From a virus, in the IMG/VR virus record IMGVR_UViG_3300023184_000039, positions 32,001 through 96,000 of that record: 64,000 nt of DNA. The stretch is one strand, 5' to 3'. The notes below the pieces were generated by a model that made no database searches, was not told where the DNA came from, and saw only the letters and a list, made by a program, of their open reading frames with translations. Both the position numbers and the translations under genes were made by a program. Shown one piece after another: positions 7,401-53,558 of the stretch; the first letter of the stretch is position 1, and the number at the start of each line of letters is the position of its first letter.

Positions 7401-7407
7401 GTCTCAC

Positions 7408-11548: not shown

Positions 11549-11550
11549 GA

Positions 11551-22029: not shown

Positions 22030-22575
22030 TCACCTATCTGGGTTGGGTGGAACCTCAACGGAAATATCATTAACCACGGCCGCTGAAATCTCAATTGGAA
22101 CCCAAGCACGAGAGTATGTGTGTTGAGAAATTTTCCTTATTTTGATGAGTGTTCCCTCAAGTAGCAATTCTAGTTCGTCGTGTTTCATGCAAAAAATTCT
22201 TTCAAACTCCGAGGTCGTAATGGCTCCAGAAAACGATAATTTTTTTACTATTCCAGAAAGCCTCTTGGCAACAAGGCTCCCCCGACCACGATTCATTTGG
22301 ACATGAAGCACCATGGCTTGAAGCGCGCCGCAGTCCATGTAGACAACAGGAACGACACCACCAAGTTTTAGTTTGATATGCGGGTTTTGCGATGCCAAAT
22401 AGAATCTTTGATGACCGTCAATTATTTCCCCGGTAGATTTCCTAATCAATAACGGCGAAAGTATTCCATTGTCAAATATTGATGCCGATAAGACCAGTAG
22501 GTCTGGCCGGAGTATGTAGTTTGCTGCCCATTCGGATGGTTTAATTTTGGTAATCTCAACCATTTCAACTTTCAT
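22030..22575 (-). CDS. ParB/Srx-like nuclease domain protein (IbrB-like)
   Basis: IKPSEWAAN...SIFDNGILSPLL...EIIDGHQRF...MNRGRG; overlaps the PAPS-reductase gene. Confidence 0.8.
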   Translation of the reverse strand: MKVEMVEITKIKPSEWAANYILRPDLLVLSASIFDNGILSPLLIRKSTGEIIDGHQRFYLASQNPHIKLKLGGVVPVVYMDCGALQAMVLHVQMNRGRGSLVAKRLSGIVKKLSFSGAITTSEFERIFCMKHDELELLLEGTLIKIRKISQHTYSRAWVPIEISAAVVNDISVEVPPNPDR

Positions 22576-29794: not shown

Positions 29795-31819
29795 ATGGCA
29801 TGGAACACAACTAATAATAAATCTCTTAATCCAAATAGCGTCAAATCGCTTATTGGTCCAGGAGCCCCCGTTTCCGGAAACCCAGGTTTAACAACTGGTC
29901 ACGGGTACAAGGACTCATGGGATATTGAGCGAGCCTACAAAGAAGGCATGCAGAGGGTCACATGGGTTGCTAGATGTATTGATGTCATTGCAGGAAACCA
30001 AGCGCGCCTGCCAATCATTTTGCGAAAGGATAACTCCCCAGATGGAGAAATCGTTACTGGTAGCAAAGCAAAGAAATCAAGCCTCTTAGAAGTACTAAAC
30101 ACCAAATCAAACATTGGTGAAAATTCTTTTATATTTAGGTACAGGCTTTCCGCACAGTTGCTTCTTGGAACCCGTGGCGTATTTATTGAAAAGGTACGCG
30201 GACGTGATGGGAGCATCGTCGGGTTGAACCTTCTGCCACCACAGCACACTGCACCAATTCCTGATGTTAAAAAATTTGTTTCTGGCTACGAAGTTACTAT
30301 GCCAACTGGCGAAATAGTAGTTATGAAACCAGAAGATGTTTGCTGGATTCGACGCCCACACCCACTTGACCCATATCTTTCACTAACACCAATGGAGTCT
30401 GCTGGTGTTGCTATTGAAATTGAGAATTTTGCAAAATTATATAATAGAAACTTTTTAATGAACGACGGAAGACCCGGTGGAATACTTGTTGTCAAGGGCG
30501 AAATTGCCGACGACGATAAAGAAGAATTAAGAAATAGATTTAGAGGAAACCTGTCTCGCGCAGGATTGACGACAGTACTGTCTGCTGATGATGGTGCCGA
30601 ATACGTTGATACGAGTTCGTCTCCTAGGGATGCTGCGTATATTCAAATGCGACAGATTACCAAAGAGGAAATTCTTGCATCGTTTGGTGTTCCAGAAACA
30701 GTAATTGGCAATGCATCTGGAAGAACATTTAGTAATGCATCAGAGGAGATTCGGGTGTTTTGGATGGAGACAATGCTTCCCCATCTTGAGCCACTTGCCC
30801 GAGCACTTGATGAATTGGACGAAGAGAATTATGTTGATTTTGATTTGTCCGAAGTTCCAGTCCTTCAGTTGTACAAGCAAGAACGAGAAAGATACCTTAA
30901 AGATGAATTGTCGCAGGGTTTGATTTCCGTTAATGAGTACAGAATTTCAAGCGGAAGAAAAGAAGTTGATGCTGACCTTGCTGACTCACTTCTAATGAAT
31001 CCAAACTTGACACCGATTGCAAATACGAAAAAGAAAATGGAAGAACCACCAGTGATGGCGCCAGGGGCACCAGGGGCACCAGGCGCACCAGGTGAACCAC
31101 CACCACCGGGGATGGAAGGTATGCCACCAAGCGAACCACCACCATCGGGTCTAGACCCAAATACAATGGCTGGCGCTCTTGCTGCTGCATCCGCAGGTGG
31201 ACCACCAGCAGATGCTGGATTTCCGGCAAGTGCCCCACCACCGCCAATCGGTGTAACGGCAAATGCTATGGCCCCAGTCCCCGCAGGAGCCGCCTCAGCA
31301 GACACGATGCTTGCCTACAAGACAGAAGAAATGAACAATGCCCTAGAGCGATGGACGCAAATTCTTGACCGTTCGCTAGAGCGAGTTCTTGAGCGCCAAC
31401 AACGAGTCGTTTTGGAAAAAGCTGGTGGTGCAAAATCCAAGAAGGCACTATATGCAGGAACCATGCAGCCAGATTCCATCTACGGTATTGACATTTGGGA
31501 AAAACAAATGGACGAGGACATCAAGCCAGTTGTGACGGCAATAATTAGGGATTCTGCAGAAATGAATAGCCTTGAAATTTCGTCAATGGAGATATTTGAA
31601 AAAGCCACACGTCATATGAACAGAATCAAAATAGTCAATCACAACATTGGCGAGCAGATAAAGTCGGCAATATCAGATTCCCTGAATGTCGCTGGGGAAG
31701 AACCAAGACACGAATTTCTTCGCAATGAACTAGTGCAAGTTTATACAAATGCACTTGGGAAAATTCGCTATCAGGTCGCATCTGATGAGGCTCGTCGTGC
31801 TTGGGAGAACAGTTTTTAA
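29795..31819 (+). CDS. HK97-family portal protein with Pro-rich linker and C-terminal extension
   Basis: WVARCIDVIA, LSLTPMESA, FLMNDGRPGGIL, EEILASFGVP and ISVNEYR motifs. Confidence 0.92.
   Translation: MAWNTTNNKSLNPNSVKSLIGPGAPVSGNPGLTTGHGYKDSWDIERAYKEGMQRVTWVARCIDVIAGNQARLPIILRKDNSPDGEIVTGSKAKKSSLLEVLNTKSNIGENSFIFRYRLSAQLLLGTRGVFIEKVRGRDGSIVGLNLLPPQHTAPIPDVKKFVSGYEVTMPTGEIVVMKPEDVCWIRRPHPLDPYLSLTPMESAGVAIEIENFAKLYNRNFLMNDGRPGGILVVKGEIADDDKEELRNRFRGNLSRAGLTTVLSADDGAEYVDTSSSPRDAAYIQMRQITKEEILASFGVPETVIGNASGRTFSNASEEIRVFWMETMLPHLEPLARALDELDEENYVDFDLSEVPVLQLYKQERERYLKDELSQGLISVNEYRISSGRKEVDADLADSLLMNPNLTPIANTKKKMEEPPVMAPGAPGAPGAPGEPPPPGMEGMPPSEPPPSGLDPNTMAGALAAASAGGPPADAGFPASAPPPPIGVTANAMAPVPAGAASADTMLAYKTEEMNNALERWTQILDRSLERVLERQQRVVLEKAGGAKSKKALYAGTMQPDSIYGIDIWEKQMDEDIKPVVTAIIRDSAEMNSLEISSMEIFEKATRHMNRIKIVNHNIGEQIKSAISDSLNVAGEEPRHEFLRNELVQVYTNALGKIRYQVASDEARRAWENSF
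31058..31093 (+). repeat. 9-bp tandem repeat encoding (APG)x4
   Basis: gcgccaggg gcaccaggg gcaccaggc gcaccaggt within the portal linker. Confidence 0.8.
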
Positions 31820-31897: not shown

Positions 31898-31924
31898 TTA
31901 TATCAATCCTAACGATTGGTCTTT

Positions 31925-34900
31925 ATGAATAGTGATTTTAAATTCAAATCAAACCCTGGCGTTGTCAACATTGACGAAGCACAGGGCATTGTTGAATGTT
32001 TCGTTGCCGGTATCGGGAACAAAGACAGCGTTGGCGACATTGTTATTAGTGGTGCTTTTGCAAAGAGTTTGACCCGAAGGAAGCCACGCGTTGTTTGGGG
32101 ACACAGTTGGAACGACCCAATCGGCAAAGTTCTTGAGATGTACGAAGTTCCACCAAATGATTCTCGCCTACCAGCAAAAATGAAGGCGGCCGGAATTGGT
32201 GGCTTGTATGCCCGTGTTCAATTTAACTTGCAGTCAGATAAGGGCAAAGAGGCATTTGCGAGCGTTGCCTTTTTCGGTACAGACCAAGAGTGGTCAATCG
32301 GATACAAAACAATAGATGCAATTTTTGACCCTAATCTTCAGGCAAATGTTCTTAAAGAAGTTGAACTGTATGAAGTTTCTCCAGTCCTTCACGGTGCCAA
32401 TCAATTAACTGGAACCATCTCGGTTAAGAACCACCCAGTCAGTTCGGCGATGCCAACGATGATGCCAATGACAATGGACCAAATGCCTCGGATAGTTATT
32501 GTTAGTTCTGATTCGATTGGCGAACCACAAGAAGAGCGCGAAGAAGACGATGAGCAGGAGTTAAATCTTTTTGCCGAGGGATTAGCGCAACCATTGACCG
32601 ATGAGCAAAAAGCAAAGATACAAAGCGAACTTTCGGAAAGAACTGGTTCAAAGGTAGAAATAACCCATGCAACCGAGGGTTCAATAGTATTCAAGAGGAC
32701 GACAACAGACGGAAAAACTTCCATGTACCGAGTTGGGTATCACACCCCAGACGATTACAACACCTTCATGTTCGGTAAGCCAGAAATTTATGCTGATGGG
32801 GAAAAGCCTCAAGCCGAAACAGAAATTCAGTCAAAGCCAAACCCAGACACACCAGTTGTACTTGCTGATGGCGGGGCTTCTTACCGTGACAACGAACAAC
32901 AGATGTCATCATTCCTCGGTTCTGAAGAGAATGTAAACCCATGGGGCAAATCATTAGCAATGCATCTCATTCAATTGCCGGGATATTCAATGAAGGATGC
33001 ATCGCAAAAACTTTCTTCAATTTTTGAATACCACAAACTTGATGTTGTTGAAACAAATAACGGTCTACTTGTAACCAGTCAGTTGTCATCGGATGCAATG
33101 GATGCATTGCAAGTTGCCGTAAAGGGGATTGGTCAAGCACTTGGTCAATCTGCTGGAACATTGCGTTCAATGTCAGAGGGATTTAACCCACATGCAATTG
33201 ACGGTGACAATGATGGTTTTGCACAAGACAACACTGCATTCATGCGTCCCTATATTCCAATCGGAAGTCTTGATATAAACCTTCCAGACATTGGTGGAAA
33301 AAAACGTAACTCTTCTGATTTATTGGACATGCCATCGCTGGGGTCAAAGATTCCCGATGGTGACCCATCACTACTGTCTGGCACTGAGCGCGAAGCCGCA
33401 CTTGCTGCAGGAAAATTAACTCCTCGCACGCGCGAAGACATGATGTTCCTTGCTGACAGAAGACCAAATAATCCAGGTCTCGCCAAGTATTGGGACATGA
33501 ATGACAATGAACTCACACTTGCTGGACAGCGACTCAAGAGTCAGCGTGCTTCTGTTTCAAGTAACGAGCGCGGTCCAATTGATGCGGAACTATACAAAAT
33601 CTCACATGAGTTCACTCGTCGCCAATCGTACGAGCAACAGTTTGGCAAGAAATTCACTCCGTCAAAAGACGGTAAGAAGAAACCAGAAAAACTAAATGCC
33701 GCTGGTCGTACCGCCGAACAAGAAGCTCAACGGATGGAAAAATTTAGAGCCGATGCCGATACCGAGATTGTTGATGATGCAAGAGCACTCGGTTCGCGCT
33801 CTGGGGAGAAACCGAAGAAACCAAATACTGCTGGTCGTACTGCCGAACAAGAAGAATTGCGAACGGAAAAATTGCGCGACGGTGCAAACGACGACCTGAT
33901 TACAGATGCATATGACCGTGGCGAACTTGGTTCACGTTCAAATCCAGAACAGAGTGCGGCAGGACAGAAAATAATTGAAGACATGCTGGTTGCTCGTGGT
34001 TACGGCAGAGAAGAAGCCGGCAACATGCTTGACAACTGGAACGAAAACGACAACGGCACAGAAGAAATTCTTAAGTCAAATAAAAATGACCTTCTTGCTT
34101 CAATTGAAGAACATTGGTCAAATGCACTTGACAGAATGAATGACGATAAAGAGTCTCGCAGTCTTGGCTCACGCAGTGGCGAAAACCCAACACCAGACTA
34201 CCAAGACCAGTTTGATTCCGTTGTTGAAAAATGGTTTGACTCGCTACCAGACAGCAAGGAACGCGTTCAGGAATATCTTGACGAAGGTTTTGGTAAACAG
34301 AACGCTCGTGAAACAGCAATAGAAAAATGGATGGAATTAGAACAGAGTGAAAATCCAGAACTGTTCATGGACGAAATCCAGAACAGAATTGACGACTTAA
34401 ATGAAAACAGATGGGACGACTACCAGTCTCGTAATCTGGGTTCGCGTTCAAAGCCACTTGGTTCACGTGGTGACAAAGACGAATCAAACCGAGAAGAGAC
34501 ATTGGCTCAACGCCTAAAAGAAATTGATGGACTTTCTGCTGAGGAAGGATACATACCAAGACGCGGTCCACAACCTAGCGACCTTCAGCGTGACATGTAC
34601 GAGGAATTTGCAAGGTACGGTAACCAAAACGATGTTTGGGATTATCTGAACACTAGATACAGTGTTGAGAAATCTGATTACAGTGAGCCAGGATACTATA
34701 CAAATGAAAACAATTACAATCTCAGTGGCGCAATAAAAGACTCCATGTCCGAAGAGGACATGCGGAACTTTTTGAAAGCAGTAGCCGAATATGAGGCCAG
34801 CCCAGACTACGACGTATACAAAAAGGGAGGCCCCCTATACGACGAGTTGAACAAAAATCCGAAGCCACTCGGTTCACGTAGTTCTGACCCAATTGATGAG

Positions 34901-37900
34901 GCAATGAAGAAGCCTTCCAAGCCAGCAAAAATTCGTGAATACGGCGCCGAAGAGTATCAAGAATTTAATACCAGCAGGAACAACGACCCTCAGCAAGGTT
35001 TTGATGAACCAGTCTCTGATGATTTCAAATCTCACGAAGATGGCTCAAAATTTGTTGGACATACGGTTACCTTTTCCGATGGAAGAAGGGGCGTCATCGT
35101 CCAGGGTTATTGGCCAGAATATGAAATTATAGACAACGATGAATATCCCCCATCATTCATCTTTGACAGGGTTGGGAGTATTGATATTGCCGTCACACAC
35201 GACAAAGATGGCAATCGCCTAGATAAAATTCAATATGAAAAAGCAAAATTTGACCAAGAGTCAGACCTTGCGATTGCAAGCGAAGAATATCCATTTGAAT
35301 ATTACAATGACCCCGAACTCGCAGATGAGTTTAGTAGGTCATCCGTTCAGATTGACGACAACAAGGTAAGCCTTGAGGAGGTAGAAAAACTTAAACAACG
35401 CCCGAGCAAGCCACTCGGTTCACGTGGTGCACGCAAATCAACAGATGACTACAAAGATTTGGTTGATTGGTTGCCAGACCCAACCTCTGGCTCAACGAGG
35501 AAATACACAGATACCACCGATGGCGCCCTCAAGGTTGCCGAGGACAGGTATGCACTCATTCATGCTCGTCGTGAAATTGCCAAGGAAATGGCAGAAGCGA
35601 ACGGCGTAGAGTGGAAAAAGAACATCAGTATTTATGATGTATCAAAAGATGATGACGATATAGACATATTGGAAGACCTAACCAGCAGAATCAACAAACT
35701 CAATGATTATGTGACTGCACAAGACAAAGAATACAGACAAATTCGCAACCAAGAGAAAAAGGTCTACAAATCTGATTCGGAACTATCAGATATTAAGAAT
35801 TCAATAGACCTCGCTCTTGAAGGTTACGAAGGTACCGAGCGTGATATTGAGGAATATTCGGGCGACAATGCCGTGGACTGGTTCACTACAACACCAGAGG
35901 AAAATACAAAAGAACTAGCAGATAGTTTGAGGGATGACTTGGAAGAGTTGACCATTCACGAGGACGAGAATGGAAACGAGACACTCGCTAGAGAGTATTC
36001 CGAAGATATTGCCGAAGCAAAGACCCTGATAGATAAGGGCACACCAGAAGATTTGCAAAAAGCAATAGAGGTAATGCAAGGTGCTATTCGCAAGCAATCT
36101 GATGATTACGATACTGCTGCAAGAAATTACGAAGCTGAGGGTGACGAACTCCTTGGCCGTGGGTATAGACCAGTTGACTTGCTAGACGAAGATGTGGACT
36201 TTGCCGATGACACCTGGGAGTATGACGACGATTTAGACATAAAGGATGTTGGCGGCAAATACTCCATAATTCCCGACGAACTCTATGGCCCAGAACCAAC
36301 AGACAGTCCTTTCCATAGTGGCAAGGAGTCAGTTGACTATTACATGGGTCGGTCCAAGAATGCCCAGTACCTGAAACAGCAGGGCGTAGGACGATATGCT
36401 CTTGGCTCACGCTCGCAAGCGGATTCAGAGGGGCAAAAACCACCACGCAGAGCGGTTCTGATGTCGATGGACCCCAAGAATTCCAAACTTGCAAGACAGA
36501 TTGATTACGACCCACAAAATGGTGACCTCACTGTTTACCGCAAAGATGGCAAAAAAGAAACATTCAAAAATGTTTCTTATGACCGTGTTCGTGCGGCCGG
36601 AGTAAAAGACGACCCAGATACGCTCATTAATGCACTTCAGAAAGAGCAGAACAAGCCACGAAGTGGCTCGCTTGGTTCACGTCAAACATTGCAAAAGATT
36701 GATGTTGGCGACAGCCAGGCAATAGACGACATCCATTACGACGATATGCGCAAAGAACTGCATGTCGGTTTTACATCCCCAGATGGAGAGACTCGTCGGT
36801 ACACATATTTTGGTGTTTCGCAAGATGAGGCAGATGCCATTGATGCATCACCAAGCAAGGGTCGTGCAATCAACGACATCAAGAGAAACCACGATGTGGA
36901 GAAGATTGATTCGTCTGCCCTCAAGAGAGTGACTGGGACCAGCGACGAGCGCATGATTAGCCCCCTTACTGATTCTTCTGGAAAATATCCAGGTATCGGC
37001 GAACCAATTGATGTATCTGGAAGTTCTGCTTTAGAGGATGCTTTCTACGACCCTCGTAAGAGAGAGTTGGTTGTCAAATACAAAGATGGTGGCTCGTATG
37101 TCTACGAGCAAGTTCTTCCCGGAGAAGCAAGTACATTAAATTCTGCCCCAAGTAAAGGTCGTGCAATTAACGACATTAAAAAGAATCACTTTGTTCGCAA
37201 GTATGAAAAAGAAGCCGGCTCGTCAAAACTTGAATGGAGCGAGACAAGCGGAACCAGTTCGGAAACTTCTGGTCGCTCGGGTCTTGACTACACAATTGAA
37301 AAACAAGCAGATGGAACCTTTTCTGCTGAGGCTGGAAAATCCACATACTCCTACCAAGACGGTCCCGATTTTGAAACCGTTGACACAGCAGACGGATTTG
37401 AGACAGAAGATGCCGCAAAGACATGGGCAGCACAACACGATTTTGCTATTATTGAAAGAGAATCAGGATACGACAAAATTGACAGAGACAATGAGAGGGC
37501 TCGTAGGAACCAACCAGTAGATGTTGGTTACAGTTCAGCACTCGAATCTGCAAGTTGGGATGAAAGAAACAATGAATTAAGCATCACGTACAAGGGTGGA
37601 AAGAAATACATCTACTCAGACTTCACTCAAGACGACCTTGACAAATTTGAAGCCAACCCAAGTAAGGGCAGAGCAGCAAACGAAGTCAAAAAGAATCACC
37701 CAGTCCGCAAGGCAGACAGTGGCCCACTTGGTTCACGTTCCACCGGGAAGTCATCTCCATCAAGAGCGGTCATTCCAACAATGCCAGACATTGATGGAAT
37801 GGATGAACAAGATGCATCGGACGCATTAGAAAAATCCAATGAAGAGTTGCTTGATTTTATTGATGAAACAGAAAAACTGGCAAGAATGTCGCGTGGTGAC

Positions 37901-40900
37901 GATAACTACAACAAATATTTCGGTGGTGCAGTTCCATACATAGAAGAACTATCCAAGAACCATGACGGTTCAGTTGAAGAGCGTAGTATTGCTTTGGAAC
38001 AAGCAATTGACCAAGCAATGTTATATAGTCAGGATGTTGGTTCTTTGGGTGACGAGCGTGAGTCTCGCGAACTCGGTTCGCGTTCTGGTGCAGGTATCTA
38101 TCGCAGTCCTGGGCGCGGTGCTCCACGACCAATTCGCAGAGATGAAGGACTCCGTGAATTGACCCCATTTGACGAACTCCCGCCAAAGGTTCAAGAACGT
38201 GTCAACGAAAGTGTCATGGAATATCTCTATGACGAAAATCGCGGCATGTATTATGACGCCCAAGACGGCGGCGTTGACATGGATGAATTCCTTTCAGATA
38301 ATGCAGGATTCCATCCATATGGATATGTGGCTTTGACAGACAAGGAAAGAGCCCAAATTCGCGAACAAATGATGGATAGGTTTGCACCAAGAGAATACAT
38401 GGATGAGTATGGCGACGAAGTAGATGCAATGATTGCCAACTGGGACAAAGAAGTGGAAGTAAACCCAGACGAAATGGTTGATTTGCTGGACAAGAACAAG
38501 GATGACTATGTTGAGGCCATTCGCGATGCATGGGATATTGAGATGGATAGGCAACTCAATTCTCGTGAACTCGGTTCACGTAGTTCGGGCAACATTGACG
38601 ATGTTGATGTAAGTGGGTCAAGTGCTCTTGATTCTGCCTACTACCATGCGCCAACAGGTGAACTCGTAGTTGGTTATGCCAATGGAAGAAGTTATGTCTA
38701 CGAAGGAGTATCCAACGAAGAATTCCAAAACTTTAATGACAGCCCGAGCAAGGGCAGGGCTATCAACGAAATCAAGCGCACACATAGCTTCCGAGTTGCC
38801 AGTGATGAGGACAGAAATGACCGCATTGCAGGTGACAGAAGTGAAAGTGATGCAATGTCAAGAGGTGCTCTTGAGTCAAACTGGAAGAGAATCGGTTCAG
38901 CAGAACAACAACGATATCTTTCCCGTGAAACCAATAGTGCAATAAGTTCTGGTTCTGGTCAATCAACGGACGAACTTCTTAATGCAGCAAAAATGAGAGC
39001 CATGGATGACAGAAACATGGCCGACCTAGAAATGCAAGCAGAGTCGGTTGGTTCTGGTGGACGAAGCATTGATGTTTCTTCGAGTCAGGCACTCAACCGA
39101 GTGACATACGATAAAGAAAACGAATTACTCTCTGTTGAATATCGCGGCCGTGACGGTAAGGGTGCTGGAACGGTTTACGAATACCAAGGTGTCCCAGAAG
39201 ATGTTGTAGCAAGCCTAGAGTCGTCAGACAGCCGGGGTGCAGCACTTCGTCAAATCAGAGACGACTACGAATTCACTACTCGTGATGCACTGCCAGATTC
39301 TGCATATGACAAAACATCAAGCAAGCCACTCGGTTCAAGCAGCTCCAACAATACCCCTAATTTCAATCGTGAAGACATGGGTAAAATTCTTGACCGCGTT
39401 AGACAAACGCGAGAATTCCAAGACCTTGAAGAAGTCCAAAATACTCTTGACGGATACATGGAGCGTTCTCCAAGCAGAACCCGTGCAAGTTATCCAGAAC
39501 TTGATAAAGAAGAAGTAAGGGTAAGCAAACTGCTTGTTGAGAAGCGCAACGAGATAATTGCGGAGATGCTTGATGCTGGTGAAATAACAGACATTTCTGG
39601 TAAGCGTAAGCCACTCGGTTCGGGTGGGCGAATGGGGCCACGACCAGATGATTCTTCATATGCTCGTGACCTTGCAGACCAACGAAACAGAGATTATGCA
39701 GCAGGGGCCTACGCAACAAACCCAATAGGTAGATTTGCAGAAAACACAGATGGTGATAAGCCGTGGGTTTCGTATGAAGACCTAGACGCCGATGTTCGTG
39801 GCGAAATTGAGCAATCATATTATGAAAGCAATCCTGGGAGCCCACGTCCTGGAGCACGAGACTGGGACTCAGATTATGCACAAAACGACTTTGAAATGAA
39901 CCCAGGGAAGTATGGGTATGCGGACGAGGCAAGTTTTGAAGAAGATTTTTCTGCCGATATGGCAAGGTTTGAATCTAGGCGCAAGCGACTTGGTTCAAGT
40001 AGTGGCTCTTGGCCAACACCAAGTGGATATGAGCCAGACGAGTTCAACATGAACGAAGCAATGTCGCAGATTGGTCGTGGCAATATTGCTGCAATCTCTG
40101 GTGGCAGAGTTGTTAAGCGTGGCAATGAAATGGTTCTCCCAGTCAACAGGAATCAACAAGTAGTTGTTGGTTACAACGGCGGCTCGGATACCTATTACGT
40201 TCGAGCAGAACAAATAATCACAAGTGGCAAAGATAAAGGTAAACACAAAATCCTCGCACAATGGGGTGAGGTTTATGCAGAAAATGTTGGAGAAACGGCA
40301 TACAACGCATCTTTGAAACCATCAATGCACAGTGAAGAAAATGCAGATTTCTGGAAGACATCAGACCTTATTCCAAAGAACACGCTTGTTGACGGTGAAA
40401 CCGGAGAGAAGATATCAAACGCAGGACCACTCGGCTCACGTGGTTCACCCGGAAGCACTCGCCCAGGAATGGGTGTCTATACCGAAAACAGCGACGACAT
40501 GCTTTACGACGAAGCAAACGGACCAAGAAACTCAATTAGGCGTCGTGGCAACTATTCGCCACCAAACCAAAGACTGCTTGCAAGACAAGACAGAGCAGAA
40601 GCAATTGAAGAACTTGCTCAAAAAAATATTACACGGATGGATATTCTCAGAAAGACAAACCCTAAGAGATTTAGGGAAATGCTCAAGCGAGAAAATATAG
40701 ACCGTAGGGATTGGCGAGAACTTGCATACAGAGATGCAACAAATGCAATTGACCAACTTGCTAGGTATCAAGAACGCCGAGCCAGCGGTAACGGCATTAG
40801 AAGACCGCCTGGCGGCAACCTCCCAAAAGTTGACCCGTCACCACGGGGTGACGGACTCTCGCCGTTTGCAAACCTGAAAGACGGCGACATCGTCACTCTT

Positions 40901-43879
40901 GATAACGGAGCATTTAAGGTAAACGGAACTGAAGAATTGCGTGGAGCACTTGGTTCTCGCGCATTTAATTACGGACCAGAAACAGAAGTGAAGACAAAAG
41001 CAGAAGCAATGAAGATGCTTACCGACCAATTGATAAAATCAATTGAGTCAGCAGAAACTGGTGAATGGAAAATGCCATGGAGGGTTACAACCCTTCCGAC
41101 AAACCCAACAACTGGAAAAATGTATTCTGGTTCCAACTTTATGATGTTGTCCCTTATTGGTGAAGCGCGTGGATACACAAGTTCACAATGGGGTGGATAC
41201 GGACAATGGGCAGACAAGGGTGGACAGGTTCGCAAGGGAGCCAAAGGTGTTCCCGTATTTGTTCCGATGCCGTTCAAGGGGAAGTTGGACCCAATAACAA
41301 ATGAAGAAGACGGGGGCGGAATGTCATGGAAAGTCATTCGGGTATTTAACCGTGACGAAGTAGACGGACTGCCAGAAGATTTTGCAAACCCACCAGTTCT
41401 TCCAGAGGGAACAAGAATTGACAACCTGGAAAAAACAATTTTGGAAGTTGCGCCAAAAATAACCAATAGTGGAAGTAGGGCTTTCTACCGACCAAGCGAA
41501 GATTCAATTACCGTTCCAGAATTTAAAAATTTTAAAAGTGCACGCGATTACTACAGTACGGTTGCACACGAACTGATGCACTGGACTGGAAGTGAGTCGC
41601 GTCTCAACAGAAAAAAAATGAATGCTTTTGGTACACCAGAGTATGCATACGAAGAACTTGTCGCCGAAATTGCATCAGCAATGTTTATTGGGGCTCATGG
41701 ACTTGAGCCAAACATTCAAGAAAACCATGGACCATACCTGAAGAGTTGGCTCGCGGTGCTCAAAGATGACCCAACTGCATTACAACGAGCAATTAAGGAT
41801 GCCCAGGCCGCATTTGATTACGTCAATGGTGCTTCCCCAAACCTCAGGGGTTTGATGGGTTCCGAAGATAATGGCGGTCTAGAGGCTTCTGCAAAAACAG
41901 TTGAAAAATTGTCAACTCCATTGGGTTCCATGACATCGCGCCCCGGCATAGGGCTTACAGCCAATGATGTTAGGGATATGGATAGCGACCAACTTGATTC
42001 CATAATGAACCATTTCGGTCCACAAAATGTATACAACGCTCGTCCCGGTGAGATAACGCAGGAAGATTATGAAGATATTGCAAAATTCCTAAATAACCTT
42101 ACAGCCGAAGAGGTAATGGGATTCAGTAATCGTGATAGGGGCACATCTAGACCATTGGGTTCACGTTCCAGTTCTGGCGTGACAGACGGAAAACCCAAGA
42201 GTGCTAGAGCAAAACTTGAAGATGTCCCAGTACCCCCAATGCCACGCCAGTACGACGAAAACAGGACCAGTTCCGATGCATACGAAGATACTGAAATGGA
42301 AATTAGCAGTTACCTAGAGTCTCTTTCAAATGCCATGAAAGAGATTGTTGGCGATGATGAGTTTGAAAAGACATTCAAGCCAAGAGTGGACAGCATTATT
42401 GATGACATGCGAGACGAGCGTTCCCAATATGCAGAACCGCCAGACTGGGCTCTGAACAGGGCATGGAAACTTCACAAGGAAATGGTTTCTCGGTCACGCA
42501 TGCGTGAGCCGCTTGGTTCTAGTAGTGGCAATGGACCGCTTGGTTCTCGCATGAATCTTAGCCAAAGTGAGAAAAACGAAATAATCGCAATGGCACGACA
42601 AATGAGAAAGTCAAACTTTGCCAAAAGTGTTGTTGCACAATATGACACAAACGGCGGACAATTATCGGATGGTCAATGGGCGGCATTGAACCGAATGACC
42701 TTGCGAGGTGGTGGGAGAAATGCAATGGGTTCTCGTAGTGAACCAAAAAAGCCAAGAACACCCAAAGGTGGATGGTCGCCAGAAGATAGGCAGAGATTTG
42801 CCGACAGAGATATTCTCAAGTCACGAAAAGTTCCAGGTAAGCGTCTCCCGGGACCAAGTGCATCCGAGTATGGTGCACTGGGTTCAAGGTCGGCATTTGT
42901 TAATGGACGAACAGTTGACATGGAGCCCAGACAGGACACCAAACCACTACGAATTGGATTGAGCGACATTGTATTCGGAGATGACGGGAAGGGTAAATCC
43001 TGGGCTTTGGCCGACCTTGCTAGAAGTAGTTCTGAATTCAGAAATATAACCCCACAGGAATTAATGGGAAGATACGGAATTTCCGAACGTGCCGCTCTTG
43101 ACATGAAGAAACCAGGTGCAAAAATACGTGACCCATACCTAGCAGACGAACTGACTAATGCCTTTGGTTTTACCCCATCCGAAATTTGGGGACGAAACAA
43201 TCCAACTGCCTACCAAAATGCAGATGGAAGCCTAGTGGACCTATCGGACCTGTTTGAAAAGCCAGATAAAGACTTTGACCCAACACTTGATGGTTCGCTA
43301 CCCGTGGTGGAACTTCCAGATGCTGATGCAACATTGGAAGGAATTTCTTCTGCCGATGAAGCACGGAAGGTACGCAAGAGGGTGGGTGGTTCGCGCAGTG
43401 GAAAACTATCAACGGGTTATGATGCCCAGGTTCTTCTTGATGAGATTGGATACAACGGCTCCCGAAGTAGGCGCGCCCTTGAGCAGGCTTTCCCAGAAAT
43501 ATCAGAAAAGCGCTGGAGGTCAATTGCGGGCAAGGATTCAACGACTGGATTGACAGTAAACGAAGTCAATTCAATCCTAAAAAGATTAAAGTCAAACAAA
43601 AAGGGGACTGATATTTTTGGGGAATCATTTGAATCTGGAACCCAAACCCCCGTTGCCTCAATTTTCAGAAACCCACTCATTGTTGCAAACATTGAAAAAC
43701 GGGGTGGAATGAATGCAGTCGCCGAAGCCTACAAAAAGGCAACTGGTAGGAGTATCTCAAGAGCGCAGTCGTACAGATTGAGGGATAGCAAGGACTCCAT
43801 CACATCAACGGAACTACGAGTGATGCTGAATGAACTCGGTATTTCCGTGGAAGAGTTTGATGCACGAAATAAGGGGTAG
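31925..43879 (+). CDS. giant prohead protease fusion / polyvalent polyprotein (S78 protease + 6 KTSC + ArdC-N/zincin + HTH)
   Basis: N-terminal HK97-type protease (DSVGDIV..GAF, WGH...PIGK, WSIGY, LKEVELYEVSPV..GAN). Frame is open for 11.96 kb (ATG 31925; track start TTG 31916). 17 LGSR plus 7 variant linkers. Confidence 0.88.
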   Translation: MNSDFKFKSNPGVVNIDEAQGIVECFVAGIGNKDSVGDIVISGAFAKSLTRRKPRVVWGHSWNDPIGKVLEMYEVPPNDSRLPAKMKAAGIGGLYARVQFNLQSDKGKEAFASVAFFGTDQEWSIGYKTIDAIFDPNLQANVLKEVELYEVSPVLHGANQLTGTISVKNHPVSSAMPTMMPMTMDQMPRIVIVSSDSIGEPQEEREEDDEQELNLFAEGLAQPLTDEQKAKIQSELSERTGSKVEITHATEGSIVFKRTTTDGKTSMYRVGYHTPDDYNTFMFGKPEIYADGEKPQAETEIQSKPNPDTPVVLADGGASYRDNEQQMSSFLGSEENVNPWGKSLAMHLIQLPGYSMKDASQKLSSIFEYHKLDVVETNNGLLVTSQLSSDAMDALQVAVKGIGQALGQSAGTLRSMSEGFNPHAIDGDNDGFAQDNTAFMRPYIPIGSLDINLPDIGGKKRNSSDLLDMPSLGSKIPDGDPSLLSGTEREAALAAGKLTPRTREDMMFLADRRPNNPGLAKYWDMNDNELTLAGQRLKSQRASVSSNERGPIDAELYKISHEFTRRQSYEQQFGKKFTPSKDGKKKPEKLNAAGRTAEQEAQRMEKFRADADTEIVDDARALGSRSGEKPKKPNTAGRTAEQEELRTEKLRDGANDDLITDAYDRGELGSRSNPEQSAAGQKIIEDMLVARGYGREEAGNMLDNWNENDNGTEEILKSNKNDLLASIEEHWSNALDRMNDDKESRSLGSRSGENPTPDYQDQFDSVVEKWFDSLPDSKERVQEYLDEGFGKQNARETAIEKWMELEQSENPELFMDEIQNRIDDLNENRWDDYQSRNLGSRSKPLGSRGDKDESNREETLAQRLKEIDGLSAEEGYIPRRGPQPSDLQRDMYEEFARYGNQNDVWDYLNTRYSVEKSDYSEPGYYTNENNYNLSGAIKDSMSEEDMRNFLKAVAEYEASPDYDVYKKGGPLYDELNKNPKPLGSRSSDPIDEAMKKPSKPAKIREYGAEEYQEFNTSRNNDPQQGFDEPVSDDFKSHEDGSKFVGHTVTFSDGRRGVIVQGYWPEYEIIDNDEYPPSFIFDRVGSIDIAVTHDKDGNRLDKIQYEKAKFDQESDLAIASEEYPFEYYNDPELADEFSRSSVQIDDNKVSLEEVEKLKQRPSKPLGSRGARKSTDDYKDLVDWLPDPTSGSTRKYTDTTDGALKVAEDRYALIHARREIAKEMAEANGVEWKKNISIYDVSKDDDDIDILEDLTSRINKLNDYVTAQDKEYRQIRNQEKKVYKSDSELSDIKNSIDLALEGYEGTERDIEEYSGDNAVDWFTTTPEENTKELADSLRDDLEELTIHEDENGNETLAREYSEDIAEAKTLIDKGTPEDLQKAIEVMQGAIRKQSDDYDTAARNYEAEGDELLGRGYRPVDLLDEDVDFADDTWEYDDDLDIKDVGGKYSIIPDELYGPEPTDSPFHSGKESVDYYMGRSKNAQYLKQQGVGRYALGSRSQADSEGQKPPRRAVLMSMDPKNSKLARQIDYDPQNGDLTVYRKDGKKETFKNVSYDRVRAAGVKDDPDTLINALQKEQNKPRSGSLGSRQTLQKIDVGDSQAIDDIHYDDMRKELHVGFTSPDGETRRYTYFGVSQDEADAIDASPSKGRAINDIKRNHDVEKIDSSALKRVTGTSDERMISPLTDSSGKYPGIGEPIDVSGSSALEDAFYDPRKRELVVKYKDGGSYVYEQVLPGEASTLNSAPSKGRAINDIKKNHFVRKYEKEAGSSKLEWSETSGTSSETSGRSGLDYTIEKQADGTFSAEAGKSTYSYQDGPDFETVDTADGFETEDAAKTWAAQHDFAIIERESGYDKIDRDNERARRNQPVDVGYSSALESASWDERNNELSITYKGGKKYIYSDFTQDDLDKFEANPSKGRAANEVKKNHPVRKADSGPLGSRSTGKSSPSRAVIPTMPDIDGMDEQDASDALEKSNEELLDFIDETEKLARMSRGDDNYNKYFGGAVPYIEELSKNHDGSVEERSIALEQAIDQAMLYSQDVGSLGDERESRELGSRSGAGIYRSPGRGAPRPIRRDEGLRELTPFDELPPKVQERVNESVMEYLYDENRGMYYDAQDGGVDMDEFLSDNAGFHPYGYVALTDKERAQIREQMMDRFAPREYMDEYGDEVDAMIANWDKEVEVNPDEMVDLLDKNKDDYVEAIRDAWDIEMDRQLNSRELGSRSSGNIDDVDVSGSSALDSAYYHAPTGELVVGYANGRSYVYEGVSNEEFQNFNDSPSKGRAINEIKRTHSFRVASDEDRNDRIAGDRSESDAMSRGALESNWKRIGSAEQQRYLSRETNSAISSGSGQSTDELLNAAKMRAMDDRNMADLEMQAESVGSGGRSIDVSSSQALNRVTYDKENELLSVEYRGRDGKGAGTVYEYQGVPEDVVASLESSDSRGAALRQIRDDYEFTTRDALPDSAYDKTSSKPLGSSSSNNTPNFNREDMGKILDRVRQTREFQDLEEVQNTLDGYMERSPSRTRASYPELDKEEVRVSKLLVEKRNEIIAEMLDAGEITDISGKRKPLGSGGRMGPRPDDSSYARDLADQRNRDYAAGAYATNPIGRFAENTDGDKPWVSYEDLDADVRGEIEQSYYESNPGSPRPGARDWDSDYAQNDFEMNPGKYGYADEASFEEDFSADMARFESRRKRLGSSSGSWPTPSGYEPDEFNMNEAMSQIGRGNIAAISGGRVVKRGNEMVLPVNRNQQVVVGYNGGSDTYYVRAEQIITSGKDKGKHKILAQWGEVYAENVGETAYNASLKPSMHSEENADFWKTSDLIPKNTLVDGETGEKISNAGPLGSRGSPGSTRPGMGVYTENSDDMLYDEANGPRNSIRRRGNYSPPNQRLLARQDRAEAIEELAQKNITRMDILRKTNPKRFREMLKRENIDRRDWRELAYRDATNAIDQLARYQERRASGNGIRRPPGGNLPKVDPSPRGDGLSPFANLKDGDIVTLDNGAFKVNGTEELRGALGSRAFNYGPETEVKTKAEAMKMLTDQLIKSIESAETGEWKMPWRVTTLPTNPTTGKMYSGSNFMMLSLIGEARGYTSSQWGGYGQWADKGGQVRKGAKGVPVFVPMPFKGKLDPITNEEDGGGMSWKVIRVFNRDEVDGLPEDFANPPVLPEGTRIDNLEKTILEVAPKITNSGSRAFYRPSEDSITVPEFKNFKSARDYYSTVAHELMHWTGSESRLNRKKMNAFGTPEYAYEELVAEIASAMFIGAHGLEPNIQENHGPYLKSWLAVLKDDPTALQRAIKDAQAAFDYVNGASPNLRGLMGSEDNGGLEASAKTVEKLSTPLGSMTSRPGIGLTANDVRDMDSDQLDSIMNHFGPQNVYNARPGEITQEDYEDIAKFLNNLTAEEVMGFSNRDRGTSRPLGSRSSSGVTDGKPKSARAKLEDVPVPPMPRQYDENRTSSDAYEDTEMEISSYLESLSNAMKEIVGDDEFEKTFKPRVDSIIDDMRDERSQYAEPPDWALNRAWKLHKEMVSRSRMREPLGSSSGNGPLGSRMNLSQSEKNEIIAMARQMRKSNFAKSVVAQYDTNGGQLSDGQWAALNRMTLRGGGRNAMGSRSEPKKPRTPKGGWSPEDRQRFADRDILKSRKVPGKRLPGPSASEYGALGSRSAFVNGRTVDMEPRQDTKPLRIGLSDIVFGDDGKGKSWALADLARSSSEFRNITPQELMGRYGISERAALDMKKPGAKIRDPYLADELTNAFGFTPSEIWGRNNPTAYQNADGSLVDLSDLFEKPDKDFDPTLDGSLPVVELPDADATLEGISSADEARKVRKRVGGSRSGKLSTGYDAQVLLDEIGYNGSRSRRALEQAFPEISEKRWRSIAGKDSTTGLTVNEVNSILKRLKSNKKGTDIFGESFESGTQTPVASIFRNPLIVANIEKRGGMNAVAEAYKKATGRSISRAQSYRLRDSKDSITSTELRVMLNELGISVEEFDARNKG
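33788..42889 (+). repeat. dispersed LGSR linker repeat (consensus CTYGGTTCACGT)
   Basis: LGSR at about 33788, 33926, 34163, 34436, 34457, 34868, 35414, 36401, 36671, 37727, 38072, 38570, 40430, 40949, 42155, 42539 and 42878; variants at 39329, 39614, 39989, 41921, 42512, 42725 (and LGSK at 33338). Confidence 0.9.
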
Positions 43880-43956: not shown

Positions 43957-45525
43957 ATGGACTCAAATAACCCTAACAATACTGTCTCTTTGAGCATTGA
44001 CTCAGAGGGAAGCGTCCTGAAGTGTACCAAGGGCCTAAATCCTGGTGAGTGTGGGTTCACACCAGGTTCAGCTGTCTGTGGTAAATGTGGAGCCATCCCA
44101 GTTGAGATGAAGGTTCTCTCTTCTGACATGTACAACGCTATTGAATCAGAACTCGAGCGATTGCGTTCACTGGTAAGTACCAAGCAAGAAGAAAAATCTG
44201 TAGGTCCTTGTTGGGAGGGTTACGAACAACTTGGAATGAAAAAGGGCAAGGGTGGGAAAATGGTTCCCAACTGCGTGCCGGTTAAAGGTAAGTCCGCCGA
44301 GGATGTTTCAATGGACGAAGAGGGCAACGGTGAAGAGTTGCCGAAAAAGAAGAAGCGTCAAATTCCCGTGGCAATGGAAGATGCCGGTACGGAAGATGAC
44401 TCCAGCATGGAATTGCCGTATGACATGAATGACGAGGGGGATGAATCAGACGAATCAAGTTTGAGTGCTGGAGATTTAGCCCAAGAAGAAAACAGCGAAG
44501 GCGAAATGGCCGACGAGGATACCGTTCCAACCTCAGTTCCTGCCAAGAAGAAACCAGCAGTTGCAACAGACGAAGAAGATGATTCTGGAGACGAAGATGT
44601 AGCAATGATGGACAAGTTTCGCAAGGCTCGCTTGGGTCAAATGGGCGTAAAGAGTCTGGAGATGCGAAATGATGGGTACAAGTGCGCCATTGATAGAAAA
44701 CTATACTCCTCAAAGGTCGATACATGCGCTGGTTGTGAGGGTGGCTGTCACGGAACCAAGGGTCAGGTAACACTTCTGCATGCAGAGGGATATGCACAAA
44801 CCCTTGTCAAGGGTAACATTATTGATTCTGGCTTTGTTCCTGAGGCAGATATGTTTGCGGTAACAATACGCCGCAAGGATGCAAAAGTATTTGATATTTT
44901 CATCAATGGTGCAACTGGACAAATTCAGGGTCATCGACTAAACGATGATTTCTCAATCAGTTCAAAGAATGACTTGCTTTTGGTGACATTTGACGAAGCC
45001 GGAGATATTGCTGTAAAGACAATACCTGGAACTGTTGTGAGTATTGAGCCAGATTCATTTGAAGGCGTTGACTCCTATGCTGTAGAAGTAGAAACAAAAG
45101 ATGGAAAATCATACGATGTATTTGTTTCACTTGATGGCAACATTCTTGGCTACGACAAGTACGAAGAAGAAGATATTGAGATGATTGAGGCCGAAGCCGC
45201 CGAGATAGCACTAAAGCGCGCCTTCAGCGAAGAAACTCGTCAGGAGATGGCCGAAAGCGGTGGGGCATTACCAGACGGTTCGTTTCCAATCAAAACCGAA
45301 TCCGACCTTAGAAATGCAGTATCTGCATATGGAAGAGCATCGGACAAGGCGGCCGCAAAAGCACACATTATCAAGCGAGCAAGAGAATTAGGCAAAGAAA
45401 ACCTCATACCAGCAAATTGGGTAATGGGAGAGAAGTCAGAATTCATTGATGCCCTTGATGATGATTTCAAAAAACAACTACTTGAATTCCAACTTCTTAG
45501 CGAAGAGACATCGTCCAATAGTTAA
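43957..45525 (+). CDS. head-cluster protein: Cys motifs, two PepSY-like domains, C-terminal DUF6582-like domain
   Basis: CWEGYEQLGMK...VPNCVP; two EA..IA....PG.V.......Y.V......G...DV..PepSY-like repeats; ALPDGSFPI..DLRNAV.AYGR...HIIKRARELG. Confidence 0.6.
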   Translation: MDSNNPNNTVSLSIDSEGSVLKCTKGLNPGECGFTPGSAVCGKCGAIPVEMKVLSSDMYNAIESELERLRSLVSTKQEEKSVGPCWEGYEQLGMKKGKGGKMVPNCVPVKGKSAEDVSMDEEGNGEELPKKKKRQIPVAMEDAGTEDDSSMELPYDMNDEGDESDESSLSAGDLAQEENSEGEMADEDTVPTSVPAKKKPAVATDEEDDSGDEDVAMMDKFRKARLGQMGVKSLEMRNDGYKCAIDRKLYSSKVDTCAGCEGGCHGTKGQVTLLHAEGYAQTLVKGNIIDSGFVPEADMFAVTIRRKDAKVFDIFINGATGQIQGHRLNDDFSISSKNDLLLVTFDEAGDIAVKTIPGTVVSIEPDSFEGVDSYAVEVETKDGKSYDVFVSLDGNILGYDKYEEEDIEMIEAEAAEIALKRAFSEETRQEMAESGGALPDGSFPIKTESDLRNAVSAYGRASDKAAAKAHIIKRARELGKENLIPANWVMGEKSEFIDALDDDFKKQLLEFQLLSEETSSNS

Positions 45526-45542: not shown

Positions 45543-48500
45543 ATGAAGGGTAAGAAAATAAAATCAACTCGTTTCATTCTTTCGTTCAAGGCTCTTGGAC
45601 ACTCACAGGAACGCATTGAGGAAATCACACATGACTTCCTTGATGGTGTTCGTCTATCAACCAAGGCTATTTCTAGGGGTGACGAAATACTGGTTAAGGG
45701 AATATCTGTTGGAAAAACCATAGGAGGGACTGGGGATGTTCCCAAAAAACAAGAGAACGAACTTCCTGGTGTAACAAATATCAACGGGTGGAAGTTTGAA
45801 AAGGCGGCAAAATATGCCCCTGGTAAAAAACTTCAGTTATTTCCAACACAGCAACAAAGAAACTCCCCTTCCAAAAAACCAAACTTTGGCTGGATTGACG
45901 ACGACACTCAAACATTCGGTTCCCCAGAAGAACTTGTCAACGATTTGCTCGCTAAGCCAAAAGTAGAAAAAAAAATATACAACGTTGATAAAGACGGTAA
46001 CCCAACATCTGTATTTTGGGAAGAAGATAAAAAGGAAATAGAAGAAAAATCACTTGGTCGTTCAATACGAGAAATGAACCCCCGTGGTGGTTTGGCTCAA
46101 CAGGCGGCGAGTCGCCTGAGAATAGTTGTTGATGACTTGGGAAAATTTAGGTGCCCACCTGGGACACCGCAGGCAAATCAATTTACCGACAAATTGGGAA
46201 CAACATGTTTTGCTGTCAGCGTAGACGAACTTGTTGGATTGGTCGAAGGGGCAATACAAAAGTTCCAAATGACTCCTAGTGGTCCAAAATTTGGAAATGT
46301 TTTAGAATCTCTTTCATCAAGGGGAACACAGGGAACTGGAAGAATGGGGGAGTCACGAAGACTTGCCGAAGGTGCAAGCAGGTGGTTTTCTGGTGCCGTA
46401 AAACGAGTGGCAACTAGGCACAACAAAATTGATGCCAATGTCAAACATCTTGAAGACACATTGGGAATTGGTTCAACGGATTTAGAGAGAGCAACCAATG
46501 CTGACCTAACCAAGATATTTCATACGCTCAAATCAAATGGACATTGGGATATTGAATATAGGGGTGGCATAAGCGATAAAAAACTTCAACCCCTTTTAGA
46601 CCAAATGGGTCTTAGTCTTCAAGATTATAGAAAAACAGAACGGGCTTTTTTGTCTCGACTATTGATGGAATATTCGGAAAACCCAGAATTGGCAAAAAGA
46701 GTTGCAAGAATTTATCATGTTGGAGTCGGAACTTACAGAAACAACAGTGGTCTAGAAGCAGCCACCGATTTACTCCTACCCCCCGTTGGGGCAAAAGATG
46801 TCAGGAGGGGAATGGAAGATGCAATAGATGCCAAATTTGAAATCATGCTTGATGTAGGGCAAATGACTGGAGAGGCAACTAGGTTCAAGGGTCCAGAAGT
46901 GGTTTCCAAAAAACATCGCTGGGGTTTAACCGTATCTGGTGGTGCAACAGAAGAAGAGCGACAGGCTGCATTGCTTGACTATGTAAACAAACAAAACGAT
47001 TTTTCAAATCGCGCATCGCATTTTGTTATGTTTGCCAGCAAAGACAAACATGTGGGAAAAGGTTCCAATACCGCATCGCACGAATTAAATCATGTTCGTC
47101 AAGCAATGGCTGTTTTGCATAAAGCGCAAGAAAGTGACAAATTAAAAGGAAAGAAGTTATCCGAAATGACTTCTGGAGATTTGTGGGATGTACTTGTGGA
47201 TTTAAATGACGATATTGATATGAGGGACTGGGAAAAAGTACGTAAAAATAAGGGATTGATTGATGTGCTTGGTGGTGACTACCCGCGTGAATATGATGAA
47301 AGGAGGAACGATGTTGGAACCCTTGAGTTATTGGCAGAAGTTGGTGCATTGCATGACTCTGGGGTAATTTCTGGTCAGGAAATTGAAGACTTTCTTGATG
47401 TGCACTCCGCTTGGCAGCGTCAAGACAGTTCCGTAAAAAGAGATGTTTCTAGAAAAAAAACAATGCAGGCAACACGAAAAAGGGTAAGTCAACCAAGTCG
47501 CAACAGTGAGGGTGTTCTTGATGTCCCCGTTTTTCCAGAATCCGATGGTGCAACACGGCGTCGCCCCCCAAGAAGGAGCGGAAAAACATTTTTTGATAGT
47601 GATGGAACAAAAAAATATGCAGAAGAGCATAGAAAATGGGTGCTTAGCAAACTTACCGAAAGCGAACAAAAAGCAATAGAGCGTCTTGGAAGACCAGAAT
47701 ACGAAGATAGGGATATTGTAAAAATTACAAGGCTTTCATCAGTTGAGGACAGTATTAAAAGAATGGAACGAAGGCACAGAGAACTTGTTGATGTCGGTCT
47801 TGAACCAGACGGTCTTAGTGTCCACGAAGCATCGGTTTCACAACAACTAGAACGAACACTCATACCCACCCTGACGGCACTTGACAAAAGTGACCTTCCA
47901 GACAGAATACAAATCGTTATTCCATCAGGCGAAAAATGGGACCAATATGGTCATGCTGGTGCAATGTTAATGCCAGAATCGGTATCGTCGCACAACATCC
48001 TTGATAACGAAATGGCGATTGAGCCCGGAATGGTCATTCTTGACACAAGCCCTGGAACGCGCGGTATATTCCATGCAGAAAAAAATGGCGGGTCTGTAAT
48101 TCTTCCACCTTCAAAAATTAGACTTACACACCTAGATGCCGACAATGTTTGGCATGCCGAAATTGTTGACCAAGAATCAAGCATGGATACCATCAATAGG
48201 CTTGAGGGATTACTCCCAACAAAAGCAAACGACAAAAGGAATGACAAACTCATTGCTCGGGAGGTTGATTCCATCCGACAGGTAATTGACACCCATCGTA
48301 GTAATGCCGCAACTAGTAATTCCGGGATTCTTGGAGATGGCTTAAGCCATCCAGTTTTGGCTAGTCGGATACGAAAGAATAATACCGATGTGGTCAATTC
48401 AATACTTGATTCTGGTGGGAAACCGTTTGACGGACCCGAACAAATAGGTTCGGATTTACCAGACTGGCTAAAAAAGCAACTGTTTGACAAAAGCAAATTT

Positions 48501-53551: not shown

Positions 53552-53558
53552 GTAAATT

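Follow-up and report, generated by a model that had tools for sequence, protein, structure and literature searches.

A giant gene with a prohead protease and a punctuated polyprotein

A stretch of 64,000 nucleotides from an uncultured phage (positions 32,001 to 96,000 of the single 140,645-bp virus record IMGVR_UViG_3300023184_000039; hereafter the window) carries a giant gene at 31925-43879 on the plus strand. Its product combines a prohead protease of the S78 family with a polyprotein of about 22 cargo modules, which are separated by copies of a short tag, mostly LGSR. The tagged giant gene is a real, widespread feature that is not due to chance, and the architecture of beads on a string, with the tags between the domains, is supported by several lines of evidence. 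Because related phages each use a different tag, the tag probably marks, in a genome-specific way, where proteins delivered with the DNA are cut free. We tentatively favour a capsid-loaded cargo polyprotein whose tags are cut by a phage protease, the S78 enzyme being the most likely reader.

Features of the giant gene (window coordinates, strand, description):
31925..43879, +, giant gene (P0001): S78 protease unit, DGDxDG head tag and about 22 tag-separated cargo modules; residues are numbered from TTG 31916
31973..32431, +, catalytic domain of the S78 prohead protease, residues 20-172 (Pfam and conservation)
32588..33145, +, two conserved accessory domains of the protease unit
33188..33280, +, polyprotein head tag, F-N-P-x-A-I-D-G-D-x-D-G-x-x-Q-D-x-x-x-F-x-R-P-x-I-P
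33788..42889, +, array of 23 tags (17 LGSR, three LGSS, LGSG, LGSM, MGSR) in polar linkers of low model confidence
36680..37735, +, module with three KTSC domains (Pfam)
38579..39337, +, module with two KTSC domains (Pfam)
40958..41929, +, complete ArdC unit (ArdC-N and MPTase, HELMH) bounded by LGSR and LGSM (Pfam, Foldseek)
42887..43876, +, C-terminal module of 330 residues, helical, with weak leads to helix-turn-helix (HTH) proteins

The frame is open without interruption from 31916 to 43879 (+). The first three residues, counted from TTG 31916, are missing in 98% of 120 homologs, and thus ATG 31925, already taken as the start in the preliminary description of this gene, is the real one; the protein then has about 3,984 residues. 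That description, made from the sequence alone, turned out to be correct in nearly every observed detail. Misassembly, which it had named as a possible objection, is unlikely because the same architecture occurs on more than 100 independent contigs of several sources.

An intact Peptidase_S78 domain (PF04586) was found by Pfam at residues 23-168, where a maturation protease of about 170 residues had been expected (33.6 bits, cutoff 21; 40.6 bits with the first module alone). Further Pfam matches in the protein were five KTSC domains, ArdcN (residues 3031-3127) and MPTase-PolyVal (residues 3171-3293). His63 (WGHSW) and Ser127 (EWSIGY), which we take to be the counterparts of the catalytic residues of the HK97 protease, show no change in 30 aligned relatives and are at least 98% conserved among 121. 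The S78 domain was modelled with a predicted local distance difference test score (pLDDT) of 60-80, and its Foldseek matches were weak (E 0.3-1.3), comprising the Epstein-Barr virus protease 1o6e, T4 gp21 5jbl and the herpes simplex virus 2 protease 1at3. The whole 640-residue N-terminal model had no Foldseek match in the PDB at E≤0.001. The accessory domains (residues 225-293 and 348-410) were modelled with pLDDT 80-93 and are separated by a disordered stretch.

The tags and their position between folded domains

LGSR occurs 17 times in the giant protein, while 0.13 occurrences are expected from its composition. A recount reproduced the earlier tally of 17 LGSR and seven variants (three LGSS, LGSG, LGSM, MGSR and LGSK). 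Including LGSK, sites of the form [L/M]GS[RKSGM] total 24, and LGSE (residue 334) and MGSE (residue 3314) occur in addition. The extended tag reads S-[G/R/K]-[P/A]-L-G-S-R-S. No other LGSR is present in the window in any frame within open reading frames (ORFs) of at least 100 residues. Six of the seven variants can be retained as linkers. LGSK at residue 475 is a doubtful one, since the model is fairly confident there (pLDDT about 76) and no tag is present at this place in orthologs. The modules measure 46-352 residues and two spacers only 7 and 9 residues, which agrees with the range of about 45-350 residues and the two nearly adjacent linker pairs noted before.

The preliminary description had placed the linkers between and not inside domains, and this was borne out by the polarity of the flanks, the ends of homology blocks, the structure models and the ArdC module. 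Within eight residues on either side of a tag the hydrophobic fraction is 0.13, compared to 0.28 at random positions (p about 1e-13). Tag flanks are polar also in five other genomes with other tags (0.13-0.18 vs. 0.25-0.28 at random positions). Module shuffling prevents most tags from being placed in global full-length alignments; therefore the ends of local high-scoring segment pairs were analysed. Among 150 relatives, 38.5% of BLAST homology-block ends lie not more than 15 residues from a tag (18.9% at random), and blocks cross tags more rarely than by chance (39% vs. 69%). For 57% of the block ends at a tag, the relative carries a tag of its own no more than 40 residues away, the baseline being 21%. 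Modules are gained and lost as whole units between relatives.

Residues 2945-3987 were modelled with AlphaFold. Segments with pLDDT below 50 account for 31% of that model and contain all seven tags of this region, and the domains between the tags are predicted with confidence. In the N-terminal model the tag at residue 625 falls into such a segment and LGSK 475 does not. As expected for a viral polyprotein processed by a protease, the giant protein thus shows a repeated short site at its domain boundaries.

Putative cargo modules

The ArdC unit is situated exactly between the tags at 40949 and 41921, as had been stated. ArdC-N and MPTase share this one tag-bounded module (Pfam E 1.9e-24 and 9.5e-40), and its model superposes on the whole ArdC of R388 (6i89; Foldseek E 3e-17, template modelling score 0.77 by target, 35% identity). 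In relatives, the boundaries of the ArdC unit bear the local tag in 56 of 58 and 36 of 41 cases. KTSC groups had been proposed to start shortly after 36401, 36671 and 38570. Three KTSC domains follow the second and two the third of these positions; the 90-residue module after 36401 had no Pfam match at E≤0.05. For the C-terminal module, a look-up in the ESM Atlas gave weak HTH leads with scores under 0.9. A degenerate tag, V-G-G-S-R-S-G, is found at 43385-43399 (residues ~3822-3828) in a low-confidence loop inside this last module, and its GGSRS may be a decayed or weak site.

Each genome uses its own tag

A search with the N-terminal 330 residues yielded 241 proteins of 2,192-6,978 residues. 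An exhaustive search of cluster representatives (clusters at 50% identity) gave 250 at E≤1e-30, in which the protease is always N-terminal; the relatives number 3,700 or more overall. The preliminary description had suggested checking whether each homologous giant protease has a repeated linker of its own, and this is the case. Nearly every relative's giant protein has an enriched motif of its own, with Ser at position 3 as the sole constant. Over-represented motifs include GFASR(G), GLASR, GMRSR, GLAS[ST], [RK]LSSG[RK], FSSGR, GFSS, STRS and SSRS, and a GMSS class exists as well. One [LFMTS][GASR]S tripeptide is present at least five times in 112 of 121 protease-fused proteins.

Five related records (G001-G005) were compared as a whole with the genome studied here (G000). 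Occurrences of the own tag were counted in the giant proteins and in the rest of the proteome:
G000, LGSR: 21 and 1
G001, GFAS: 19 and 2
G002, LSSG: 20 and 2
G003, LSSG: 18 and 5
G004, LSSG: 17 and 3
G005, GMRS: 17 and 2

In the five related records the own tag is common to two or three giant ORFs per genome, and foreign tags are near zero. A repeat or cassette-recombination signal at the DNA level was considered and ruled out by the several synonymous codons found at every tag position in all six genomes. As the codons vary synonymously, selection acts on the peptide. A residual codon bias towards CTY-GGT-TCN-CGY fits a descent from F-A-S-R by single-base changes (TTY to CTY, GCN to GGN). The closest relatives have the same gene order, proteases that are 86-90% identical and the tag GFASR; local alignments place LGSR opposite FASR, LASR and FGSR at the same joints. 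It follows from the tag of these closest relatives that all sites of the present lineage changed in concert.

Head tag, split forms and a second polyprotein

The head tag has the family consensus F-[D/N]-P-x-A-x-D-G-D-x-D-G-x-V-Q-[D/E]-G-x-x-F-x-R-P-x-I-P. Each polyprotein of the family begins with a single copy, whether it is fused to the protease (residues 420-500) or unfused (residues 11-80), and this element is likely to serve as a loading or anchoring signal. Split relatives encode a protease of 460-494 residues, whose gene stops just past the counterparts of both accessory domains, and then a polyprotein of more than 3,100 residues that starts 3-90 bp downstream. The fusion point corresponds to about residue 415 of the giant protein. 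In every relative examined the S78 protease is either fused to a tagged polyprotein or encoded 3-90 bp upstream of one. The protease had been thought to act also as a capsid-targeting tag; since unfused polyproteins bear their own conserved N-terminal DGDxDG tag, it is not needed as a targeting device.

About 26 kb downstream of the first polyprotein, the record encodes a second one:
genome 102525-110606 (window-equivalent 70525-78606, outside the window), polyprotein of 2,693 residues without protease

It contains four LGSR as well as LGSA, LGSQ and LGSM, a head tag at residue 34, and modules resembling zincins (three, with HE[YG/YA]H), WYL, RNase_T and GNAT. Just upstream of it, genes for a C5 DNA methylase and a TauD-family dioxygenase were found. 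Polyproteins of relatives add domains of superfamily 1 helicases, sigma-70 region 4, pentapeptide, RNase_T, WYL and GNAT.

Candidate enzymes for cutting at the tags

We infer that the tags are probably cut and, with somewhat less certainty, that the modules are packaged and ejected. The fused S78 protease is a possible cutter, to which we give a tentative preference. According to this model, a single chain would consist of the S78 unit (about 415 residues), the DGDxDG head tag and about 22 independently folding modules on disordered linkers. A phage-encoded protease would cut at the tags to give about 20 separate small proteins, which would travel with the DNA into the next cell. The S78 enzyme would cleave behind the invariant Ser (phi-x-S↓), in the P3-P1 format known from assemblin-type proteases (arrows mark a cut or its presumed place). 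It would act in cis, and in trans on other tagged proteins, from the prohead stage onwards. In favour of S78 are its constant fusion or adjacency to a tagged polyprotein, the invariant His63 and Ser127, and the phi-x-small pattern of the tag. There is also precedent for prohead proteases that process internal head proteins at motifs of three residues (P3-P1), e.g. A-x-E in the case of SPN3US gp245 (PMC10052503). Mutual information between protease columns and tag class is at most a lead, as it is fully confounded by phylogeny; the same confounding weakens two co-variations: wherever a class has Arg as the second tag residue, K50 is replaced by E, and E108D is seen only in the present genome, whose tag is likewise unique.

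The following neighbouring genes bear on the identity of the enzyme:
11551..16464, -, putative tape measure protein of 1637 residues, assigned by its position after the sheath and tube genes; Gly-zipper match
29795..31819, +, portal, directly upstream of the giant gene
45543..49673, +, HExxH protein of 1376 residues (P0004), candidate zinc peptidase; HELNH in this genome
54314..55615, +, HK97-type major capsid protein without an LGS tag; E-F-K108↓A-L-A-G-G where HK97 has K103↓S-L

Several observations weigh against S78 as the reader. No LGS, FAS, LSS or MRS tag was found in the capsid protein of any of the six genomes. All six keep E-F-K-[A/S]-L-[A/N]-G-G at capsid residue 108 (window 54635-54643) whatever their tag. 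A capsid maturation site that co-varies with the tag was looked for in the same genomes and not found. The sequence K-A-L-G at the junction between S78 and polyprotein and at the N-terminus of the HExxH protein suggests that S78 reads a conserved code instead. Furthermore, the S78 domain, 78-90% identical across tag classes, is the most conserved and slowest-evolving protein of these genomes though the tag changes completely. The putative tape measure of this phage carries the tag-like ALASRS near residue 50 and LGSG at residue 644, and at both places orthologs in four other genomes bear the tag of their respective genome; in G002 the only two LSSG that are not in polyproteins belong to its putative tape measure. 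A protease confined to the prohead could not reach tags on this protein, which makes cutting after ejection a serious possibility for either enzyme. As the capsid protein lacks a tag and keeps an HK97-like K↓A-L site, the reader of the tags may be S78 or the HExxH protein or MPTase. That the fused S78 protease cuts at LGSR inside the head, as the preliminary description had it, is thus not established, in view of the untagged capsid protein, the tagged tape measure and the high S78 identity across tag classes. Its alternative, an internal zincin as processing enzyme, is a live rival, but the HExxH protein at 45543-49673 is a better candidate than the MPTase of the ArdC unit.

Two codes read by two proteases are the strongest competitor, in our judgement only slightly less likely than S78 as the reader. 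S78 would keep to the rule K↓[A/S]-L and only remove the capsid delta domain, free itself at K-A-L-G and trim short propeptides, and a phage zinc metallopeptidase would read the tags. The first candidate is the HExxH protein; next come the MPTase of the ArdC unit or the HEYGHY modules found in the second polyprotein. This peptidase would cleave on the N-terminal side of the hydrophobic residue, in line with the common preference of zincins for such residues at P1'. It would probably do so once ejection into the new host has brought it together with the cargo and the tape measure. This arrangement accommodates the tags on the tape measure and the untagged capsid protein with its E-F-K↓[A/S]-L-x-G-G at 108, compared to 103 in HK97. 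The motif K-[A/S]-[L/I]-G is found at the capsid delta-domain boundary, at the junction of protease and polyprotein (~residue 403), at residues 16-19 of the HExxH protein and at portal residue 16, although the overall enrichment of K↓[A/S]-L is modest. Eight orthologs, which represent all the tag classes that were examined, share HExxH and a Glu further downstream without exception, while the protein itself diverges fast, as would be expected of a reader that co-evolves with its site (24-32% identity by whole-protein BLAST, 17-38% in the aligned region around HExxH). Nevertheless, its nature as a peptidase rests on a short motif: no relative was found in Pfam, PHROG or PDB sequences, and a profile run against PDB sequences gave matches at chance level. 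In four other genomes it is embedded in what is itself a tagged polyprotein, and in the LSSG and GMRS genomes its ends flank inserted modules. The tags STRS and SSRS contain no hydrophobic residue, and MPTase is absent from many fused polyproteins and from the G005 record (76% complete). We regard it as rather unlikely, but worth stating, that a large clade of uncultured phages has two orthogonal codes, a conserved K↓[A/S]-L for capsid maturation and a fast-evolving private code in cargo polyproteins and tape measure, which a dedicated co-delivered peptidase would read only after ejection. If so, about 20-40 effectors would be shipped as two or three threads and unpacked in the new host; the private code would keep the cargo inactive in the cell that made it, and co-infecting relatives could not read it.

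It is improbable that the tags stay uncut and that the polyprotein is delivered intact like the N4 virion RNA polymerase, with the tags as recognition motifs for the capsid interior, a chaperone or a Ser-modifying enzyme. The invariant Ser could be a site of modification, and some polyvalent proteins, such as N4 virion RNA polymerase, ArdC and TraC1, are described as packaged or transferred uncut (PMC5512222). Exact, genome-private repeats confined to disordered joints are, however, the signature of processing sites; the modules equal whole free-standing proteins and come and go as units, and a tag on the tape measure is hard to square with binding to the capsid interior. Cutting by a host protease, with tag differences mirroring host differences, is very unlikely: the tags are lineage-specific and loosely fit the -3/-1 rule of signal peptidase (small residue, Ser, at position 3, variable position 1), but their polar flanks lack a signal-like hydrophobic segment, and close relatives with the same gene order and highly similar proteases have different tags.

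Relation to known systems

The closest description is that of polyvalent proteins, giant multidomain proteins in a head-gene context with ArdC-N and an MPTase zincin (Iyer, Burroughs, Anand, de Souza and Aravind 2017; PMC5512222). They are predicted to be packaged, injected and possibly cut, and autoprocessing by MPTase was proposed. The giant protein has the domain content of this group (five KTSC, ArdC-N and MPTase besides unknown modules). Its location in the head-gene module and its fusion to a prohead protease are the context in which it may be packaged and injected. Going by the searched passages of that account, assemblin-like peptidases occur only at C-termini of polyvalent proteins, whereas the protease is N-terminal here, and it describes no repeated tag, genome-specific code, shared head tag or tags on other virion proteins. 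The 20-30 identical tags over two or three proteins per genome differ from polyvalent proteins as described there. Within the theme of polyvalent proteins and head cargo, the genome-private tag, its concerted turnover and the shared head tag are distinctive.

In T4 (gp21, L/I-x-E) and SPN3US (gp245, A-x-E), N-terminally loaded proteins are cut by the head protease and ejected with the DNA (PMC10052503). The present system is similar in its likely N-terminal loading element and three-residue motif. In T4 and SPN3US, however, the cargo comes from separate genes with one propeptide site each, and the motif is common to the capsid protein, whereas here one chain holds many units. The present motif ends in Ser and not in Glu, differs between close relatives and is not found in the capsid protein; in none of the six genomes does the cargo motif coincide with the capsid maturation motif. 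The delta domain of HK97 gp5 is cut at K103↓S104-L105 (PMC10275583), the site correctly remembered in the preliminary description. As in HK97, the S78 protease follows the portal. The capsid protein comes close to the HK97 layout, with a putative delta domain that spans its first 108 residues or so and ends in the candidate site K108↓A109-L110; this matches the HK97 site in place as well as in sequence. HK97 gp4 is small, free-standing and without cargo, in contrast to the present protease with its two extra domains, which is fused to or located beside polyproteins of thousands of residues.

A search by blastn against cultured phages gave no match, and the best protein relatives from cultured phages comprise only the protease domain, at about 40% identity. 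The 'capsid maturation protease' gp27 of Gordonia phage DalanDe (Bendigovirus, 1633 residues) has an S78 domain 41% identical to that of the giant gene. It differs in carrying the protease near the C-terminal third and in having no 4-mer more than three times, i.e. no repeated tag.

In RNA viruses and African swine fever virus (pp220/pp62), a protease encoded by the virus cleaves a single translation product at short sites that recur along it; to our knowledge, such systems have not been reported from tailed phages. Unlike in those viruses, the modules here are accessory cargo instead of replication or core structural proteins, and the site turns over between close relatives. No description of protease-fused, tag-punctuated phage polyproteins was found in the literature searched in full text, which is an incomplete collection. 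If the tags are cut sites, phages would use this polyprotein strategy for accessory cargo instead of core proteins. The tags would then show where the domains begin and end in hundreds of uncharacterized, exchangeable phage proteins that act early (at least 250 clusters of relatives at 50% identity), and ORFs of 4,000 residues would become lists of units of 50-350 residues. Likewise, the joint change of all 20-30 sites between close relatives, such as that from F-A-S-R to L-G-S-R, would be an unusually clean natural case of protease-substrate co-evolution, and the head tag together with the cut tags would form a simple grammar for loading chosen proteins into a capsid, relevant to phage engineering in laboratory strains.

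Other neighbouring genes

The phage has genes of a myovirus, encoding tail sheath, baseplate wedge, a T4-type large terminase, an HK97-type portal and an HK97-type capsid protein. The S78 gene is placed after the portal gene, yet it is followed by about 10 kb of non-canonical genes before the capsid gene is reached. Among these is the following:
43957..45525, +, very acidic protein of 522 residues with a PepSY match and a Cys-rich N-terminus

Its C-terminal pattern DGSFPI...L-x-N-A...GRA...AKxHI recurs at the end of the DalanDe protease gene. The protein may be scaffold-like, judged by its position, or a protease-associated element. Two small head-module proteins (DUF6321 and DUF3721) are encoded at 52703-54197 (+) between the extra head genes and the capsid gene.

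A PAPS-reductase-like gene (22565-23704, -; phrog_2302, E 3e-76) lies between the tail and packaging modules, and relatives keep ParB_N, a PD-(D/E)XK nuclease and Rad52 beside the terminase. Giant collagen-like proteins with G-A-T-G/G-P-T-G repeats are encoded in G002 (144741-148505) and G004 (9088-12111), and the present genome encodes a protein of 1257 residues with Thr runs (TTTT) at 7137-10907. These collagen-like and Thr-run proteins are probably fibre or decoration proteins.

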